Shown here piece by piece: positions 2,743 to 28,156 of a DNA stretch of 64,000 nt. Numbering within the stretch: position 1 is the first letter of the stretch; each line of letters opens with the position of its first letter. The translations under genes and the position numbers were made by a program. The stretch is from a phage, in the sequence record PZ476263.1, one strand, 5' to 3'. Below the pieces are notes generated by a model. That model did not search any database. It was not told where the DNA came from and saw nothing but the letters and a program-made list of their open reading frames with translations.

Positions 2743-4227
2743 ATGGCGTCCAATTACGGTCTAACGGGTAGTGGATTTAACCTCCCGCCGATGGAAGACT
2801 TAGTTCAGGAAACGAAGAAAACCTTTAAGAATGAATTTGGTGAGGACTTCAATACTGAAAGCAACTCCGTCGCAGACAAACTAATTTCTATTTTCAACGA
2901 ACGTGAATACCAACTTTGGCTTTTGATGGGTTCTGTATATTACGCTCAGACAATGCAAGGTGCGGAAGGTATTTACCTTGATGATCTTCTATCTAAACGC
3001 GGTATCTATCGTAACGGCAAGACTCGAAGCACAGGTCAGGTACAAATGACCATTGGGTCAACTGTTCCTTACAATATGATCTATTCCGCGACGGCTTATA
3101 CCATTGACAATGATTATCGTCTTTCTAACGATGTACAGGTAGCAGGGAACATCTTTGCTCAAGTCATTAAAGGAACTGATCTTTCTGTTGGTAGTTATCG
3201 TCTACAGATCCAGAATATTAATGATCAATCCATAAAGGTCATGACTTATCAACTAACAGCCACTTCCGGTGCGCCTGTTATCGCATTCTTCTCAGCAATC
3301 AAAGAATTTATCGTCGAAAACACGATCCTTTCCAATACGGATAAGATCATCATCGACTCTGTGGAAAATGCAATCTACATTGGTTATGATACTAACAAGA
3401 ATCTTACAGGGTTGTCAAGTCGTATCGACTTCAGAACTCAACCCATTGCAGGTAACCGAACGATAACTTTAGATGTTCGTGCAACAGAGCCTGGTCCAAT
3501 ATCTCGTGATGCTTACAGTGTACGAGGTATAAGTCCTGTCCCTGCCGACTTCCTCGATCTTACAAACCTTGTGGCGTTCACGCCTGGTTCAGATGTAGAA
3601 TCTGATAACGAATATCGACTTCGTGCAATCGATGCAGTTAATACCGGAAAGGCAACAAGAACCGCGATCTTGGCTGCATTGCTGAACAAGGTTGAAGGTA
3701 TTGAAAAGGTAAGGATCTTCGCAAACAACACTGACAAGACTAATGCACTTGGTGTCCCTCCTTACTCGTTTATGCCAGTTGTTTATGGTGGTAACACCGC
3801 AGAGATTAGTCAAGTCCTTTACGACACAATCGCAGGTTCCAATAACACTTCGGGAACTACCTTCTACAACATCACGACTGAAGATGACCAGGTGGAAACT
3901 ATTTGGCATACAAAAGCTCAGGCAAGAAGATTGAGCTTACGTATCAGCTATCGTGGAAGACCTCTTTCTGTTGTTGAAGAAACAACGATATCAAATAGCT
4001 TGATTACTGCGATAAATGGAACTATGATAGCCGGAACACTGTATAACGTACAGCTCGTGGGTACTGTTATCAGTTCTACCGCATCCTCCCGCTTTACTCA
4101 AGTTTTTGTAGAGATAAAGAACGTAGAAGAACCTGAATCTTCCTACGTGGGAACGGATGTGTCTGCGGCAGTGACAGAAGTTTTTGCATTGTCGGCAGAA
4201 AATATTGAATTCCGTCAAATAGTTTAA
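2743..4227 (+). CDS. putative baseplate wedge protein (J-like)
   Basis: 494-aa ORF with RBS GGAGGA upstream; size and position typical of baseplate wedge proteins; assignment by context only. Confidence 0.45.
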   Translation: MASNYGLTGSGFNLPPMEDLVQETKKTFKNEFGEDFNTESNSVADKLISIFNEREYQLWLLMGSVYYAQTMQGAEGIYLDDLLSKRGIYRNGKTRSTGQVQMTIGSTVPYNMIYSATAYTIDNDYRLSNDVQVAGNIFAQVIKGTDLSVGSYRLQIQNINDQSIKVMTYQLTATSGAPVIAFFSAIKEFIVENTILSNTDKIIIDSVENAIYIGYDTNKNLTGLSSRIDFRTQPIAGNRTITLDVRATEPGPISRDAYSVRGISPVPADFLDLTNLVAFTPGSDVESDNEYRLRAIDAVNTGKATRTAILAALLNKVEGIEKVRIFANNTDKTNALGVPPYSFMPVVYGGNTAEISQVLYDTIAGSNNTSGTTFYNITTEDDQVETIWHTKAQARRLSLRISYRGRPLSVVEETTISNSLITAINGTMIAGTLYNVQLVGTVISSTASSRFTQVFVEIKNVEEPESSYVGTDVSAAVTEVFALSAENIEFRQIV

Positions 4228-4891: not shown

Positions 4892-6526
4892 ATGGCTATA
4901 CCAACTACGCCGATTGTTGTTTTTGCGGCACAAGATGTTAACCTTCCTGGTACTGGAAGACCAAACAAATCAAAACCTATTGATGATCTGTTGGCGAAAG
5001 GTTATGACAAGGGCCAGAAACCTGCGGCGGAAGAATTTAACTATATCCTCCACCAATCTGGAGCTTGGCTTTCTTATATCATCAATGAGAAGTTCCCCGA
5101 GGTAGAAGAGGAATATCGCAGACTAATCAACGAGCTTGAAAATCGTATTAACGAACAGATCACTATTATTCGTCAAGACGTTGCTGCGGTAAGGCAAAAC
5201 GTAATTGAATTACGTCAATACTTGGATCAACAGGTGGCGAATCTTCGTCGTGAGATTACTGCGGTTGACCAACGGGTTACTCGTTTATCTCAAGACTTGG
5301 ATGCGGCTGTTGCTAACCTTACTTCACGTATAGATGCATTGGAGCCTCGTTTAGTTCCAATTGGTGCAATCCTTACATGGGCAGGACAAACCCCGCCTGC
5401 GGGTTATTTAGAGTGTAATGGTCAGGTATACAATACGAACCAAAACCCGAAACTCTATCAAGTTTTAGGAAGAAACGTAGTTCCTGATTATCGTGGTTTG
5501 TTCCTTCGTGGATGGGCGCATGGGTCTAACGCATACGATCCTGATTCTGGTCGTGCATTGGGATCTATTCAGGGCGATGCAATCCGAAACATTACGGGCG
5601 CAATGGGATATGAAAGTATCCGTACTGACCACGGTTATCGTGAAACTGGTGCACTTTATACTCAGTACAATTCCAACAGTGGTCCAGACCATGACCGTAA
5701 AAACCCTGCGGGTGATGTACGGTTTGATGCGAGCCGTGTAGTTCCTACCGCTCCTGAGAACAGACCAAAAAACGCCGCAGTTATGTATATCATAAAAACT
5801 GATCAGGCTCAGGGTACGGGAAGTCTTTCTCCTACGTCCTTGATTACTACACCTGATACGATAACTAACCGTGTTGGATTTACTCAAGGGATTAGTGCTC
5901 AAGTTCTTCCTGCAAACTTAGCTAGTCAGTATCCGGTAACTTGGACATCACAAAACGGTAATGTTGCAACCGTGGATAGTGCAGGTAACGTAAGATTGAC
6001 CGGACCTGGTGAGACGAATATTATTGCCTCTATATCTACGGGATTGTCGGCGCAGGTTAGAATTGTATCCTATACCGCACTAACAAGTATTAGTATTGGC
6101 ACTATTCCAACCATAGAAGTTAACGGGTCTGAAGTTGTACCTATTAACAGAGTACCTGCAAACTCCAATGAACCTCTGGTTTATTCAACCAGTAATGCAA
6201 ACGTGGCAGTAGTTACCCAAGGTGGTTATGTTTCAGGTGTTGCTCCAGGGACAGCTGTTATTACTGTGCGTGGCTCTATTTCTGGCGCTCAAGCTACAAG
6301 ACAGGTAACTGTAATTCCTGCGACTGTTGTTCAAACTATCGAAGATGTTCGTTTAGGTATTGAACAGCAAACCACTATGAACGGTGACAACTACACGAGT
6401 CCAGTTCGTGCTCCGGCAGGTTGTGTTATCACAGGTGTTGTTTCTGCGGGTCTTGGTCTTAACCAAGGTTATTATAAACCAATCCAGAAGCTTATGTCCG
6501 GCGTTTGGGTGACAGTTCAAGGATAA
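4892..6526 (+). CDS. tail fibre protein (coiled-coil, tail-collar motif, Ig-like repeats)
   Basis: 544 aa; heptad-rich segment (NELENRINEQITIIRQDVAAVRQNV...); tail-collar-like motif GAILTWAGQTPPAGYLECNGQ; two Big_2-like repeats (VTWTSQNGNVATVDSAGNVRLTGPGETNIIAS; LVYSTSNANVAVVTQGGYVSGVAPGTAVITV). Confidence 0.75.
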   Translation: MAIPTTPIVVFAAQDVNLPGTGRPNKSKPIDDLLAKGYDKGQKPAAEEFNYILHQSGAWLSYIINEKFPEVEEEYRRLINELENRINEQITIIRQDVAAVRQNVIELRQYLDQQVANLRREITAVDQRVTRLSQDLDAAVANLTSRIDALEPRLVPIGAILTWAGQTPPAGYLECNGQVYNTNQNPKLYQVLGRNVVPDYRGLFLRGWAHGSNAYDPDSGRALGSIQGDAIRNITGAMGYESIRTDHGYRETGALYTQYNSNSGPDHDRKNPAGDVRFDASRVVPTAPENRPKNAAVMYIIKTDQAQGTGSLSPTSLITTPDTITNRVGFTQGISAQVLPANLASQYPVTWTSQNGNVATVDSAGNVRLTGPGETNIIASISTGLSAQVRIVSYTALTSISIGTIPTIEVNGSEVVPINRVPANSNEPLVYSTSNANVAVVTQGGYVSGVAPGTAVITVRGSISGAQATRQVTVIPATVVQTIEDVRLGIEQQTTMNGDNYTSPVRAPAGCVITGVVSAGLGLNQGYYKPIQKLMSGVWVTVQG

Positions 6527-22712: not shown

Positions 22713-22736
22713 AAAAAACCACCCCGAAGGGTGGCT
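22713..22736 (-). terminator. rho-independent terminator downstream of DNA polymerase (- strand)
   Basis: CCACCC-cgaa-GGGTGG hairpin with T-run on - strand. Confidence 0.7.
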
Positions 22737-22752
22737 TAAGATTAAAGTTTCA

Positions 22753-23651
22753 TTAGTGACAATCTCCCCAGCTGTATCCACACAAGTATTCCCCTGTGAT
22801 ATGCACTGGTGATTTCATCATCTTAGCTGCTTGTTCGACACAACGAACAACCATCTCTCCTACAGGGCAGTATGTAATAGTGAAGATACCATTTTCATCT
22901 GGATCACACTTAAACTTACCTTCCTTGACACAATGGCCTTCGAGGACCATCTTCTTAGCAAGACATGCCTCAACAAAAGCTTTTGCATCAGCTTCGTTAT
23001 CAAACTTCCATACCTTTTTGAACTTCTCCGGCACTTCAAGCTGGTACTCGTCATGGTAATAAATTGTACGACGTACACCTTGATCATACCAACCTTTTTT
23101 AACCAGCTGCCAATGCAACAGGATACCTACCAAGTCAAACATGGCAGCACCACCGTTCTGTTGGAAAGCGTTAAGCAATGAGTGTTTGGATCGGGTATAG
23201 ATCTTACGACCATCAAGACCATAAATGAATCGTTTACCGTTGGCTTCCCAAAACTTCTCAAGTGCTTCTTTACGACCTTTCAAACCTAAGTTGCTATCCC
23301 AAAATGCATCGATTACTGCTTGTGCTTTCTCCAATGAAATTCCAAGCATGGATGCAATCTTAGCTGCTTGAGCACCGTACATAATTCCATAGGTGATCCC
23401 CTTTCCTTCCCCACGAGATACTTTCTTACCCGCTGCCTTGGTATATGCTTCTGCGTTTCGACTATGAGCATCACCACTTTCCATAATTCGGAGGTAAGCA
23501 CCACCATCGAATTCATAACTTCCCCATGCAGCGACCATACCCTCTAAGTTAGAACCGTCTATACCTACCTGATACTTACCCTCGGGTACAGTGAAAAGGT
23601 CACGCATTTCTTTACCTAGAAGAACCTTAGGATCAGGCTTCGGCACGTTAG
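22753..23651 (-). CDS. DNA polymerase, family A (T7 gp5-like), 3' exon: palm/fingers from motif A to C-terminus
   Basis: GIDGSNLEGMV (motif A region), KGITYGIMYGA, GLDGRKIYTRSKHSLLNAFQQNGGA, YHDEYQLEV (motif C), C-terminus ...SWGDCH; parallels the T7 DNA polymerase C-terminal half as recalled; 5' boundary approximate. Confidence 0.85.
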
Positions 23652-24875
23652 CACAATATGTTCGTTAAAGGTCGCAACTCTTTAACCGGGATCGTATACA
23701 CCTGAAGAAATATCTCTTCACACTTTCGAGTACGATTCCTGTTTCTTTTGCTACGTCACAGAAATCTTTCCCATCAAGTATCATTTTTGTTATCTCTAGT
23801 TCCAACTCTTCTTTAGTTTTGTTTCTTAACTTACTGACCCCAAAAGTTTTATCTTCGGCAAATTTACCGATAAAAAATCTAACTGTCGGTTTCTCTAAGT
23901 TTAGGATCTCACAAATCTTTAAAAGAGTCGCACCTTTCCACCATAAAGATCTTGCTTCTTCTGCAAGATGTTTCTTTTCTTCCACTTCAGAAACACATTT
24001 CCCCATGTCGAAAGTTTTTAAGTATCTTGCTGCAAAGTGCCTTTCTTGTCCAAGGTCCAGAGAGATTTTTGCATACGAATCACCTGCCAGATATCTTTTA
24101 TGGATGTGCAGATACATCTCTCCATAGTTATCAAAGCCGGATTGTTTTGCTCTATTATCTCTTTTTGCCATTGAACTTCTTTCAGATGCGATAGTTTTTA
24201 TGGACTCACCAAAAGAGTTTCCAATTGCATCTGGACTAGGACTCACCGCTGAAAAAGTATTATTAGTCATGTTATAGAATTCTGTATTGTTGGCTGCATC
24301 ATTCTCTAAAAGAACTTTTTCTTCGATTTCACGAAGGAGATCTCTTTTGTCTACAACTTCCAACACCTCAGCTACAAATCTATGACCACTTTTTAAATCC
24401 TTTTTCATATCTGGATTGGAAGAGGACCCAAGATAAGGTTTTCCACTCTTAATCGAGATTATTGTGGGGATTCCATCCACATCTATCACTTTGCATTCAC
24501 TTTTACTTCCGATATATTTGTTCGGGTATTCTTCTTTATCGATGTTTTTCAAGAGATAAACAATGTTCATGTATACGTCCTCCGCTGTATCTTTCAACAC
24601 AGTTCAGACTATATCTTTGACACACTAAAGGATAGCTGAACCAATCTACCCCTAATGTATCACAAACCACTTCGATTGTCTACGCTTACAATCTACGCCT
24701 TCCGGCTAGTCGTTGAACCTTCTACCTGTCTGGTAGCTTGGCTGCTGATTGCCCAATCCTTTAACTTTTTAAACCTTCGCTTTGTATTCCTACTCGCAGT
24801 GGTATAAAGGCTCTAAGGGGTTCCCAGCAATTCAATTTGTTTTATACTGAGGCAGCTTTAGTTTACCACAGTGTG
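23652..24875 (-). mobile_element. group I intron interrupting the DNA polymerase gene, carrying a GIY-YIG homing endonuclease ORF
   Basis: All four conserved core elements on - strand RNA: P AAUUGCUGGGAAC (rc of 24820-24832), Q AAUCAGCAGCC (rc of 24740-24750), R GUUCAACGACUAGCC (rc of 24704-24718), S AAGAUAUAGUCUGAAC (rc of 24602-24617); polymerase reading frame resumes after the inserted ORF; exact splice sites not resolved. Confidence 0.75.
23665..24600 (-). CDS. GIY-YIG family homing endonuclease (intron-encoded)
   Basis: 311 aa; N-terminal MNIVYLLKNI...NKYIGSKSE matches the GIY...YIG module; Lys-rich C-terminal half; RBS GGAGGA; located inside the intron downstream of core element S. Confidence 0.75.
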   Translation of the reverse strand: MLKDTAEDVYMNIVYLLKNIDKEEYPNKYIGSKSECKVIDVDGIPTIISIKSGKPYLGSSSNPDMKKDLKSGHRFVAEVLEVVDKRDLLREIEEKVLLENDAANNTEFYNMTNNTFSAVSPSPDAIGNSFGESIKTIASERSSMAKRDNRAKQSGFDNYGEMYLHIHKRYLAGDSYAKISLDLGQERHFAARYLKTFDMGKCVSEVEEKKHLAEEARSLWWKGATLLKICEILNLEKPTVRFFIGKFAEDKTFGVSKLRNKTKEELELEITKMILDGKDFCDVAKETGIVLESVKRYFFRCIRSRLKSCDL

Positions 24876-26594
24876 TTTACGACGGCCTGTATTCGTTATT
24901 CCAGTATAACGTGCAGGTAATTTACCGTCCACCGCAAGTCGAGGATGGTTTAACCAACCTGTATCTACTTTATCCTCTTTCAAAGGATCAAGAACACTTC
25001 GACGGTTACGAAGAGATAGCCATTTTACAATCTGCTTTGCCATATCACCATCGACTCGCTCAAGGTTAGGACAAAGGCCCTGCTGATCCTTAAGCTGCGG
25101 TGATGTTGGTAATGCTCTTGCCTTCTTCCTGAAGAACTTATACATCTTCTCTTTATCTTGCCACTGCTTACCACTGATACCTAAACTTTTCAGAATCAGA
25201 TCGCGATATTCAGTCTGGTCAAGATCATCAATGTATTGACGAACAATGATATCGACTTCGTTATCGGGACGTTGTTTCTTAAACTGGTCCTTCGTCGCAT
25301 CTTTGGTTCGCCACAATGTTGGGACCCAACCCGCATCACGAATAAGGAATTTTTTAACGTCATCCTGATTACCAATACGCATCGGAATCATAATATCCGG
25401 CATCTTTTGATCTTTGATATCCATCAATGCACGGGCCATGTCTTCCGGTGGCAAAGGTACAAGATTTTCCTTTTTCACATTTTGAGAACGAATAAATTCA
25501 GCCATTTTGGATTCATCTTCTACACCATGCTCTACACAATACTTAATTGCAGCAGATGTGAGTGAACCATCGCCCTTAAACGGCTTACTTGGAGCGCCTT
25601 TAAATTCAAGAGCTTCCCAATTCACATTGTAACCTAACTTCTCTAACCATTTCCAGCCCGTACCAGAAAGAGATCCATCTCCTTTAAACGGCTTAGACGG
25701 GAAAGTAGGCTGTGCTGACTTGGACATCTCTTTCTTCGGCAGCTTTGGTTCAACCTCTTCTTCAATTTCTTTCATCATCGTATCAATACGATCACGCAAA
25801 GCTAAACCTTTCTCCACGTCGAAAGTAACACCCTGAATTTCTTGCTCAACCATCAAATAGTCGGTAAGCATACCTCGACGCAAGGCATTCTTCCAATTGA
25901 TGAGCTTCATCTTCTTCGGATCTTTGTCCGATTCATCTTTGTACATGAAACGTTTATCATCCGGCATAGAGTCACATGAAATTTCTTTCATGAGGGCATC
26001 CCATACCATTTCGTTGATGATTACGTCTTCAATAATACGATCACAATATTTCCACAAAGGGAGTCCACGCCAATCTTCGATTGCTACCTTCTGGTTTGCT
26101 ACTCGCATACCCCAAGCTTCAAGTCCATGAGGGCCTACAGGCTTCATTTTACCTGTAACTGGGTTCTTTACCATCTCGGGACAACCGCGCGGCAGAGGGC
26201 GATCTGGATACAGTGTACGGGACATTGAAAGGGTATCGAAGATGTTAACTTGTTTACCATTGATAGTCCCCATGCAACCAGGGTCTGCAAACATATCGTA
26301 TGTTGTTCCAAACATCTTTTTAAACAGCTGTAAGTCATAGCCGAAGATATTATGGATAGCAACAGCTTTTGGTTCAGTCACAAACCACTCATTAAGTTCT
26401 TCCAACTTACGGATCTTAAAGTTCTTACCTTTGGATTGAATAAACTTAACCGCTTGCTCGTAGCCTTCGCGGTTCGGATCGATAAAAATATTCCAATTGT
26501 CCTTTTTGTACTCTTTAAAAAGAACACAGTGAACAAGATCAACTTCTGTCAACAGGCCGTTAGCCTCTGCATCTCCAATAAACAAACCTTTCAT
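24858..26594 (-). CDS. DNA polymerase, family A (T7 gp5-like), 5' exon: 3'-5' exonuclease domain plus N-terminal part of polymerase domain
   Basis: FIGDAEANGL (Exo I), GPHGLEAWGMRV and GWVPT match T7 gp5 landmarks as recalled; ends ...TGRRKHTVVN just before the conserved PNL(Q)xIP region; last codons and stop probably intron-encoded. Confidence 0.85.
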   Translation of the reverse strand: MKGLFIGDAEANGLLTEVDLVHCVLFKEYKKDNWNIFIDPNREGYEQAVKFIQSKGKNFKIRKLEELNEWFVTEPKAVAIHNIFGYDLQLFKKMFGTTYDMFADPGCMGTINGKQVNIFDTLSMSRTLYPDRPLPRGCPEMVKNPVTGKMKPVGPHGLEAWGMRVANQKVAIEDWRGLPLWKYCDRIIEDVIINEMVWDALMKEISCDSMPDDKRFMYKDESDKDPKKMKLINWKNALRRGMLTDYLMVEQEIQGVTFDVEKGLALRDRIDTMMKEIEEEVEPKLPKKEMSKSAQPTFPSKPFKGDGSLSGTGWKWLEKLGYNVNWEALEFKGAPSKPFKGDGSLTSAAIKYCVEHGVEDESKMAEFIRSQNVKKENLVPLPPEDMARALMDIKDQKMPDIMIPMRIGNQDDVKKFLIRDAGWVPTLWRTKDATKDQFKKQRPDNEVDIIVRQYIDDLDQTEYRDLILKSLGISGKQWQDKEKMYKFFRKKARALPTSPQLKDQQGLCPNLERVDGDMAKQIVKWLSLRNRRSVLDPLKEDKVDTGWLNHPRLAVDGKLPARYTGITNTGRRKHTVVN

Positions 26595-26912: not shown

Positions 26913-27352
26913 CGTTCAATCTCCTTCTTTTTGGACATAGTGATGAAATAGTTCTGACCTTTCTTGCACTGGTTAAACCAGCCAACAAGATATCCATCTT
27001 CGATACGAATATCATACTCAGGGTATTCGCCCGTTCCACTGATTATATGGAAAAGTTTACCGAAGTCAATAAAGGTCAGATTATACTGAAAGTTTTCCTC
27101 GTCCTGGAAGATTGCAACAGCAGAGCTTCGGCCCTTTGACGTAGTAATAAACTTAAGTTTAAGTTCACGATGCTCATGATCGACAATGTTAACTTTTCTC
27201 TCAAGCAAGTAATTTGGGTCAACACGGGGCCAATGAGCTTTAAATCTTTCAGCGCCTTCTTCAGTAAAGGCATCACCATCGTAACCAGTAAACCATTTAC
27301 CATTATCTTTTACGTAGCCATGATAACTACGCTTACCTTTTACTTTAATCAT
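26909..27352 (-). CDS. hypothetical protein
   Basis: 147-aa ORF. Confidence 0.5.
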   Translation of the reverse strand: MIKVKGKRSYHGYVKDNGKWFTGYDGDAFTEEGAERFKAHWPRVDPNYLLERKVNIVDHEHRELKLKFITTSKGRSSAVAIFQDEENFQYNLTFIDFGKLFHIISGTGEYPEYDIRIEDGYLVGWFNQCKKGQNYFITMSKKKEIER

Positions 27353-27552
27353 TCCGTTATCTCCTCTTGTTCTGGATCTTCGATCATTGAGCTTTTAACT
27401 CTTGACCCGTATGTGGTCATTTCACCCGACCTACTCGAACCCTCAGGTGCTCTTATGACAGCATGACCTCTTAATAGTGTTCCTTCGTAGGTTTGTCCAA
27501 CTACAAAACCCATTTGGGAAACACCATTATCTCTATAACAAAGTAAATTCAT
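27349..27552 (-). CDS. small paralogue array member 11 (divergent)
   Basis: 67 aa; GQTYEG...IEDPEQEE; shares family scaffold. Confidence 0.55.
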   Translation of the reverse strand: MNLLCYRDNGVSQMGFVVGQTYEGTLLRGHAVIRAPEGSSRSGEMTTYGSRVKSSMIEDPEQEEITE

Positions 27553-27763
27553 CGTTCTCTATTTTAATTTCCTCTGTGATTTTATTTTCGGGATCAAGAA
27601 TAAGGCATGACTTTTTACACGGCACGGAATAAAACAACCCCCGCTCGTTTGGACAGATAATTAAAATATTTCGACCTCCCATATCTTTACCCTCGTAAGA
27701 CTCTCCTACCATTACCCCTTTGTCCCTCAGGAAACTATCCTCTTTTATGTAGATATACCTCAT
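27533..27763 (-). CDS. small paralogue array member 10
   Basis: 76 aa; MRYIYIKED...VGESYEG...ILDPE. Confidence 0.6.
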   Translation of the reverse strand: MRYIYIKEDSFLRDKGVMVGESYEGKDMGGRNILIICPNERGLFYSVPCKKSCLILDPENKITEEIKIENDEFTLL

Positions 27764-27960
27764 AGGCTGTTTTCCTCAGGGTCAAGAATAAAATGTTTAT
27801 CTTCGCAAAATCCCCAGTTATTTTCTCGTCCTAATGGATAGATACAGAGAATATTTTTCTTTATACTTGCATATTTCCCTTCATAAGTACAGCCTATTTC
27901 TACATGTTTCCAAGTAGGAACACTTAAGCATATGTATTTTTTAAATGTTTCTTCATTCAT
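27760..27960 (-). CDS. small paralogue array member 9
   Basis: About 66 aa from internal Met (track ORF to 27984); KKYICLS...IGCTYEG...LCIYPLG...ILDPEE. Confidence 0.6.
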   Translation of the reverse strand: MNEETFKKYICLSVPTWKHVEIGCTYEGKYASIKKNILCIYPLGRENNWGFCEDKHFILDPEENSL

Positions 27961-28156
27961 TTTGGTCCTCCCCCTCAGGGTCAATAACGAAGTGTATAGA
28001 ATTTAAATATCTTATCCCACCATCCAACCCTGTCGGGTAGATACAAAGATAGTGAAGCATTACGCTATCTTCACATCCATAATAAGTCGATCCTAAAGAA
28101 ACTTGACTGCTTGCTTTATCTGATAAGCAGATGTACTTTTTTAAATCCTGTTTCAT
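27953..28156 (-). CDS. small paralogue array member 8
   Basis: 67 aa; KKYICLSD...GSTYYG...LCIYPTG...VIDPEGE. Confidence 0.6.
   Translation of the reverse strand: MKQDLKKYICLSDKASSQVSLGSTYYGCEDSVMLHYLCIYPTGLDGGIRYLNSIHFVIDPEGEDQNE

Follow-up and report, generated by a model that had tools for sequence, protein, structure and literature searches.

A group I intron with a SegE-type GIY-YIG endonuclease gene, probably mobile, in a phage's DNA polymerase gene

Why is a phage's DNA polymerase gene divided between two open reading frames (ORFs)? The question arises from a 64,000-nucleotide (nt) stretch of phage DNA (sequence record PZ476263.1), the whole of which is called the window here, where two co-oriented ORFs on the minus strand carry the two parts of a polymerase. 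The first, at 24858..26594, encodes 578 amino acids (aa) and ends ...TGRRKHTVVN*, and the second, at 22753..23646, encodes 297 aa from a possible GTG start and opens with VPKPDPKVLLGKEMRDLF...GIDGSNLEG. An earlier note, made by reading the sequence, had described both ORFs as they are found here and had attributed the gap between them to a group I intron carrying a GIY-YIG homing endonuclease. In its essentials this is borne out. The gene is very probably interrupted by a splicing-competent and recently mobile group I intron with a functional GIY-YIG homing endonuclease. The parts of the interrupted gene are as follows, where a slash marks an exon boundary, as it does below.

24865..26594, minus strand: DNA polymerase exon 1, 1730 nt; 3′–5′ exonuclease domain and N-terminal part of the polymerase domain; 3′ end ...ACU GUG GU/
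24865..24872, minus strand: 5′ strand of P1, the last 8 nt of exon 1, ACUGUGGU; its partner is GCCUCAGU at 24853..24846
23654..24864, minus strand: group I intron, 1211 nt, IA2-like; 5′ end AAACUAAAG..., 3′ end ...ACAUAUUG, of which the last G is the terminal G
24858..24860, minus strand: UAA stop codon of the exon-1 frame in unspliced RNA, 5–7 nt inside the intron
22753..23653, minus strand: DNA polymerase exon 2, 901 nt, stop codon included; 5′ end U GCU AAC GUG CCG

Exon 1 matches PHROG 17 (DNA polymerase, E 2.8e-52) and exon 2 matches both PHROG 8888 (E 5e-153) and Pfam DNA_pol_A (PF00476; 43.3 bits, cut-off 34.3, E 3e-11). Alignment to T7 gp5 places motifs A (GIDGSNLE), B (RGEGKGITYGIMYG) and C (YHDEYQ) all on the exon-2 side, and T7 gp5 is also the closest solved structure for the spliced polymerase (E 2.5e-16, spanning motifs A–C). 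By sequence the product is assigned to the family A DNA polymerases, and it would have 876 aa once spliced (...HTVV/ANVPKP...). The stop codon of the exon-1 ORF had been suspected to be intronic, and the UAA at 24860..24858 does lie inside the intron. Unspliced RNA would give just the 578-aa fragment, which has none of motifs A, B and C, and splicing is therefore predicted to be required for replication. No Shine-Dalgarno sequence was found upstream of GTG 23646, the only candidate start for exon 2.

Where exactly does the intron begin and end? Three independent lines of sequence evidence agree in placing it at 24864..23654: an intron-less allele, the pairings of the RNA, and the break in identity against a second copy in the metagenomic contig L017 (handles of this kind denote the loci compared). 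The closest polymerase is that of coliphage A7_1, which is uninterrupted (L001 1477..4131) and colinear with exon 1 plus exon 2 at 85–86% nucleotide identity, with 86% up to the last base of exon 1. Across the site it reads ...TGRRKHTIVANVPKPDEKVLLGKEMRELF... and ...TGRRKHTIVANVPKPDEK..., and the allele around the insertion point is ...CGTAAGCATACGATCGT/AGCAAACGTACC.... Joining the window at 24865 and 23653 gives ...TGRRKHTVVANVPKPDPKVLLGKEMRDLF..., in a single open frame of 876 aa that equals the A7_1 polymerase in length and reads HTVVANVPKP at the junction against HTIVANVPKP in A7_1. Thus the comparison with an intron-less relative, which had been proposed as a check, comes out in favor of the intron, since removal of 24864..23654 restores a colinear polymerase. 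The predicted junction of the ligated exons is ...ACUGUGGU-UGCUAACG..., i.e. ...CACACUGUGGU/UGCUAACGUGCC....

In the RNA, P1 consists of seven of eight possible pairs between ACUGUGGU and GCCUCAGU, and the pair at the 5′ splice site is a U·G wobble. P1 is retained in the window and in the introns of L004, L007, L008, L009 and L011, with changes on both sides at six of the eight pairs. The intron ends ...AUAUUG at 23654 with the terminal G, and P10 has 3 base pairs (bp) in the window and 5–6 bp in L004, L007 and L008, including a compensatory A-U/U-A swap between L007 and L008. Rfam places P1 at 24948..24925; this placement falls in conserved polymerase coding sequence and was dropped. We prefer P1 at 24872..24846 because homologues, covariation and the minimum-free-energy fold support it. 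Between L017 and the window identity collapses no more than 7 nt upstream of the 5′ splice site and 3 nt downstream of the 3′ splice site, and no co-conversion tract is visible in the exons flanking the two introns past these 7 nt and 3 nt. The 3′ junction of L011 remained ambiguous. The insertion point in the window lies inside a conserved ...V-V/A-N-V-P... segment, equivalent to PNLQNIP of Pol I and upstream of motif A. In T7 gp5 and Pol I the aligned sequence is ...PNLxQIP..., in agreement with the PNLxxIP position originally read from the sequence.

The ribozyme itself is recognized by Rfam model RF00028, which matches 24585..24952 (minus strand) at 73.8 bits (gathering score 50, E 7.3e-17) over model positions 1–253 of 253, the sole Rfam hit in the whole window. 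The covariance-model check suggested for the locus is therefore positive. The P, Q, R and S strings that had been picked out by eye are present in that order, at about 24833, 24750, 24717 and 24617 on the minus strand. The elements of the RNA are the following.

24585..24864, minus strand: ribozyme core, from the 3′ strand of P1 to P9, by covariance model, fold and covariation
24853..24846, minus strand: internal guide
24839..24834 with 24668..24663, minus strand: P3
24829..24824 with 24748..24743, minus strand: P4
24741..24718, minus strand: P6
24711..24707 with 24611..24607, minus strand: P7
24706..24697, minus strand: P7.1
24693..24674, minus strand: P7.2
24661..24619, minus strand: P8
24602..24585, minus strand: P9, with a GAAA tetraloop
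23664..23686, minus strand: 3′-terminal hairpin GUUAAAG-AGUUGCGAC-CUUUAAC, 10 nt before the 3′ splice site

The helices run in the order P1, P3, P4, P5 (extended), P6, P7, P7.1, GUA, P7.2, P3′, P8, P7′ and P9, with no P2. Introns of subgroup IA2 are distinguished by two additional helices, P7.1 and P7.2, which lie between P7 and P3′ with G-U-A connecting them (PMC3428280). In the window GCCGGAAGGC-GUA-GAUUGUAAGCGUAGACAAUC at 24706..24674 forms P7.1 and P7.2 joined by GUA, and both hairpins are present in the minimum-free-energy fold. On this arrangement, which matches that given for IA2 phage introns (PMC3428280), we class the intron as IA2-like. When 24872..24571 is folded without constraint, the minimum-free-energy structure contains P1, P3, P4, P5, P6, P7.1, P7.2, P8 and P9. 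A MAFFT alignment of six intron cores was unreliable in the periphery (the P5 extension, P7.1/P7.2 and P8), and covariation was therefore counted on helices extracted by hand. Over these six related introns three of the six pairs of P3 and five of the seven pairs of P9 covary, and P4 and P7 are invariant. The 3′-terminal hairpin is kept in six introns with compensatory changes at three of its seven pairs. It takes in the final codons of the endonuclease gene (...LKSCDL*), and given its compensatory changes this segment is both coding sequence and an RNA element.

Over the first ~130–160 nt of the intron, from P3 to the start of P7, group I introns that lie in unrelated genes of many phages show 70–86% identity. 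Among these phages are nepoznato, N4-like Pseudomonas phages and phages of Staphylococcus, Bacillus and Lactococcus. The most similar cores (79–86% over ~130 nt) are those of Pseudomonas phage PAP02 (L015 2447..2710) and Escherichia phage nepoznato (L014 2446..2714). These introns split the RNA polymerase large subunit gene (N4-like Litunavirus) or a hypothetical gene (Phapecoctavirus) and are mostly unannotated. We also considered the P9 region as a mimic of the homing site, an operator or invasion footprint. A short ACTGTG-TTG similarity seen in the window copy is absent at that place in L004, these two being the copies compared, and we treat it as chance. At its gathering threshold Rfam gives no report of the published phiL7 polymerase intron (L013), and even at E ≤ 0.001 it misses the intron of L012, though there the P, Q, R and S strings can be made out by eye. 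Rfam-based counts of phage introns are therefore underestimates.

What does the intron encode? Its endonuclease gene lies 3′ of P9 and ends 11 nt short of the 3′ splice site.

23665..24570, minus strand: homing endonuclease gene, 301 aa and stop codon, 3′ of P9; SegE/I-TevI-like GIY-YIG domain at residues ~1–105, linker, helix-turn-helix region at ~124–295
24578..24583, minus strand: Shine-Dalgarno GGAGGA of the endonuclease gene, 7 nt before ATG 24570

Michel et al. (1992) are said to have placed the T4 sunY ORF, too, on the 3′ side of the catalytic core, its 3′ splice site being remote. The ORF in the window had been read as 311 aa, starting from GTG 24600. Its identity as an endonuclease stands, and its start is likely to be ATG 24570, because the longer ORF overlaps P9, GGAGGA lies 7 nt upstream of the ATG, and homologues with independently called frames begin at the same M-N-I-V-Y in the alignment. 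The family is rare, with 38 clusters in 5.8 billion proteins and one match in 50,697 phage genomes. None of these 38 homologues of ~300 aa has a source-given name and most are without a precomputed Pfam domain.

Taken alone, the endonuclease of the window matches Pfam SegE_GIY-YIG (PF19835) with E 0.0025 at 16.6–18.5 bits, below the gathering score of 25, and PHROG 7504 'homing endonuclease' with E 1e-5. Among family members 20 of 36 match SegE_GIY-YIG, with a best E of 1e-5, and four match GIY-YIG. A profile of the family finds the I-TevI catalytic domain (1ln0) in the PDB with E 1.3e-6, and hhalign aligns the N-terminal 112 residues to I-TevI with a probability of 97.4% and E 1e-11. We assign the N-terminal domain, with its predicted alpha/beta fold, to the GIY-YIG superfamily. 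In profile and fold alignments residues 33–50 (GIPTII...PYLGSS) superpose on the GIY-YIG hairpin of I-TevI. The GIY...YIG module described earlier was probably IVY...YIG(S) at residues 3–21; it does belong to a nuclease domain, but it forms an additional hairpin at the N-terminus, of a sort typical of the SegE-type domain, and the I-TevI equivalent is residues 33–50. The extra hairpin contains the invariant Tyr5 and Tyr19, which may act as substitutes. Glu83 and Asn100 are also invariant and align to Glu75 and Asn90 of I-TevI, and Tyr46 aligns to Tyr17. Residues ~124–295 are all-helical and family members match helix-turn-helix families there, so that the protein appears to have the usual layout of nuclease, linker and DNA-binding region.

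Is the intron mobile? The copy in L017 is 96.6% identical to that of the window in the core and 96.9% in the endonuclease gene, and the exons on either side are 71% and 69% identical. The intron is absent from the nearest polymerases, those of A7_1, A5-4 and A73, and from those of the relatives of A5-4 and A73. An intron of ~97% identity in a polymerase of ~70% identity, together with its absence from the nearest relative, is the pattern of recent homing, and points to recent horizontal transfer between distantly related phages.

How general is this arrangement? At 11 of 12 other loci (L004–L009, L011, L012, L016, L017 and L018) a homologue of the endonuclease is found behind a group I core that splits a polymerase gene, at the same site or a few nt away. 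The insertion context H-x-V-V/I / A/V-N-V/I/M-P, in which the spaced slash is the exon boundary, is shared by very divergent polymerases, e.g. TARSRHSVI/VNVPSAG in L007. One of these loci, L016, is from a cultured phage, Vibrio phage vB_VibM_10AMN (OR472329, 32096..35668), in which exon 1, an intron scoring 68.9 bits, a homologue of 29% identity and exon 2 follow one another, all annotated as 'hypothetical protein'. Its junction appears to be RS/VNAP, 1 nt off the site in the window and equivalent to that of phiL7. The remaining homologue, of 44% identity, is free-standing (L010 3001..3903, Logan ERR9698285 contig). It is flanked by a dnaB-like helicase gene and, directly downstream, by its presumed target, the uninterrupted gene of a 765-aa polymerase in which the equivalent site is LHKIV/CNIPRV; there is no Rfam hit at this locus.

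It is conceivable, if on present indications doubtful, that this family is a snapshot of a free-standing enzyme and an ORF-less intron at its target merging into one mobile element, as would hold if the free-standing enzyme of L010 cuts the same polymerase site. Such a route, 'endonuclease-gene invasion' or collaborative homing, has been discussed (PMC3984707).

Other selfish elements are found at several of these loci. The polymerase gene of L005, a metagenomic phage, has three separate group I matches (3681..4006, 5210..5470 and 5844..6118, at 70, 102 and 78 bits), and its close relatives L004 and L006 have two each. Inteins are present in a DnaB-like helicase with Hom_end_hint in L007 (1..529) and in polymerase exon 2 with Hint/Intein_splicing in L012 (4025..6196), so that the replication modules of these two host several kinds of selfish element. 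A different intron lies near the C-terminus of the polymerase in A5-4 (L002 3821..4554), A73 (L003) and their relatives, and the window is without it. This interruption contains a 172-aa HNH_3 ORF and a sub-threshold group I match in a local search (42.9 bits, E 2e-9), and is represented in GenBank as separate polymerase fragments and a hypothetical protein.

A number of points weigh against a spliced and mobile intron. P10 is just 3 bp in the window copy, P1 contains a U-U mismatch that is conserved in most homologues, and the core folded by itself has a modest z-score of –2.05. In the I-TevI register the first tyrosine of GIY is proline (P35), and the catalytic Arg27 of I-TevI aligns to K56, at a Lys/Arg position that is not invariant; there is no invariant arginine in the nuclease domain. 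The active site would therefore be unconventional, and the assignment of its residues is incomplete. Finally, splicing catalysis, endonuclease activity and the cleavage site are inferred.

The unconventional active site lends some weight to the best surviving alternative, in which the intron splices and is immobile, the endonuclease being inactive or kept as a maturase or DNA-binding regulator. Defunct intron endonucleases are known, such as I-TevIII of T4 (PMC2988022). Yet the catalytic Glu and Asn are invariant, and the ratio of nonsynonymous to synonymous substitution rates (dN/dS) for the endonuclease is 0.05 against the copy in L017 and 0.09 against that in L018. The protein is therefore maintained by selection, which is strong and purifying over the entire ORF. 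With the signature of recent homing in the comparison with L017, and the absence of the intron from the nearest relative, an immobile intron is improbable.

Different boundaries are less probable still. If the 5′ splice site were placed one codon further upstream (ACUGU/), it would likewise follow a U and the frame would be kept at the 3′ splice site, giving HTVANVP. However, that U would face a U of the guide and not G, the product would be one residue shorter than the polymerase of A7_1, and in all the homologous introns the U·G wobble falls where we place it.

The weakest explanation, a gene split by a free-standing endonuclease cassette with a dead ribozyme relic, whose polymerase halves are translated apart and then assembled, could draw on the two called ORFs with a possible GTG start for exon 2, on phage genes of this kind such as NrdA of Aeromonas phage Aeh1 split by mobE (cited in PMC7344957), and on the free-standing homologue of L010, and it was the scenario that the earlier note had set against its own reading, but it finds no support and is very unlikely in view of the full Rfam model matched well over threshold, the compensatory changes that keep the pairing of P1, P3 and P9, an intact, conserved core that is undecayed in a 97%-identical copy within a 70%-identical host gene, the want of a ribosome-binding site before GTG 23646, and a break inside a conserved segment whose removal gives the exact length of the uninterrupted homologue.

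For a spliced and mobile intron, the course of events would be that expected from the family. The ribozyme would fold after transcription, with the last 8 nt of the exon paired to the internal guide in P1 and U·G at the cleavage site, and exogenous guanosine would attack the 5′ splice site. The 3′ splice site would then be set by P10 and the terminal G, and ligation of the exons would yield the messenger RNA for the 876-aa polymerase. The endonuclease would be made from its own gene downstream of P9, using its own ribosome-binding site. In a mixed infection it could cut intron-less polymerase alleles near the insertion site, and recombinational repair off the intron-bearing genome would then copy the intron in.

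Group I introns in phage family A polymerase genes have been known since SPO1, and include those of SPO1 and SP82 (I-HmuI/II), Bastille (I-BasI), cyanophage Pf-WMP3 (I-PfoP3I) and Xanthomonas phage phiL7 (PMC3428280). In codons of Escherichia coli Pol I the published sites are 674 (SPO1, SP82, Bastille and Pf-WMP3), 676 (phiL7) and 881 (phiI and W31), all with HNH enzymes (PMC3428280). The junction of phiL7 reads ...DPNL/QNVS. If NVP of the window corresponds to N678-I679-P680, the split codon in the window would be L676 of Pol I, 1 nt from the phiL7 site and inside the hot spot of codons 674–676. The introns of SPO1, Bastille, Pf-WMP3 and phiL7 are IA2-type and self-splicing, as is predicted for that of the window, and lie in the same conserved segment of the same gene; those of phiL7 and the window both end ...AACAUAUUG. 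They differ in carrying an HNH (nicking) enzyme in internal loops such as P6a, where the window has a GIY-YIG enzyme 3′ of P9, and in their hosts, that of the window being a Vequintavirinae-like coliphage. Closer in host is phage CB7, a member of the Vequintavirinae with two HNH-carrying polymerase introns that have been shown to splice (PMC7344957). It shares subfamily, gene and the arrangement of intron plus endonuclease with the window, and differs in the HNH class of the enzyme; A5-4 and A73, with their HNH intron near the polymerase C-terminus, are nearer to the window than CB7 is. Among the Bastillevirinae, polymerase introns carry HNH, LAGLIDADG or endonucleases without a recognized domain, and GIY-YIG enzymes were observed solely in introns of the ribonucleotide reductase and thymidylate synthase genes (PMC11878797).

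The classical intron endonucleases of the GIY-YIG type are I-TevI and I-TevII of T4 (PMC2988022). Like the system in the window, that of I-TevI is a group I intron that interrupts a gene for nucleotide metabolism in a myovirus of E. coli, with an N-terminal GIY-YIG module and C-terminal DNA-binding modules, and a Shine-Dalgarno sequence ~7–8 nt before AUG. In contrast, its host gene is another, the nuclease of the window is SegE-type with an extra N-terminal beta-hairpin and only ~23% identical, and the DNA-binding region of the window enzyme consists of several helix-turn-helix modules. The best Pfam match of the nuclease domain is to SegE of T4 and the other free-standing Seg enzymes (PF19835; PMC2988022); the homologue in L010 is likewise free-standing, whereas the window copy is intron-borne.

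What is new here is thus limited to three points: the presence in a polymerase intron of a GIY-YIG family of the SegE type, its location 3′ of P9, and the host lineage. A GIY-YIG-carrying intron is added to the polymerase hot spot, for which three papers describe HNH and LAGLIDADG enzymes and one group without a recognized domain, with no GIY-YIG among them (PMC3428280, PMC11878797, PMC7344957). The contrast of a 97% intron with 70% exons makes this a clean case of an intron recently passed between phages that are distant relatives, and the endonuclease family, with its intron-borne and free-standing forms, could serve as a new specificity. Our understanding of how such elements work is unchanged. 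In annotations the two ORFs of the polymerase should be merged into a single spliced gene of 876 aa, with the intron marked and the 'hypothetical' 301-aa ORF labelled as a GIY-YIG homing endonuclease; this correction is equally due in the GenBank entry of phage vB_VibM_10AMN and in many metagenomic contigs.

What kind of phage carries the intron? The locus had been called T7-like, which holds for the closest solved structure of its polymerase and not for the phage. The polymerase region is 83–86% identical to that of the unclassified Vequintavirinae coliphages A7_1, A5-4, A73, W70, UPEC06 and LTH01, and ~77% identical to that of CR3 and CR8, which are Certrevirus phages. A further 20 kb of the window shows ~80% identity to the coliphages just named. 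On the resemblance of both regions to the Vequintavirinae coliphages, we assign the phage as an rV5-like myovirus, a relative of the Vequintavirinae with ~80–85% DNA identity to A7_1 and A5-4.

A promoter scan gave no more sites than shuffled sequence, and we therefore claim no promoter inside the intron. Downstream of the polymerase gene one further feature is present.

22716..22737, minus strand: intrinsic-terminator-like hairpin and T-run, 16 nt past the polymerase stop codon; 9-bp stem

Immediately after this strong hairpin, in the segment 22666..22737 (minus strand), comes the most promoter-like site of the region, TTGACA-16-TATGAT with TG (11 of 12 matches), which precedes the next gene. 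On the other side of the polymerase gene, at 27349..28156 (minus strand), there are four tandem ORFs of 67–76 aa with the shared motif ~G-x-T/S-Y-E/Y-G ... I-x-P ... L/I-DPE, which look like an array of paralogues.

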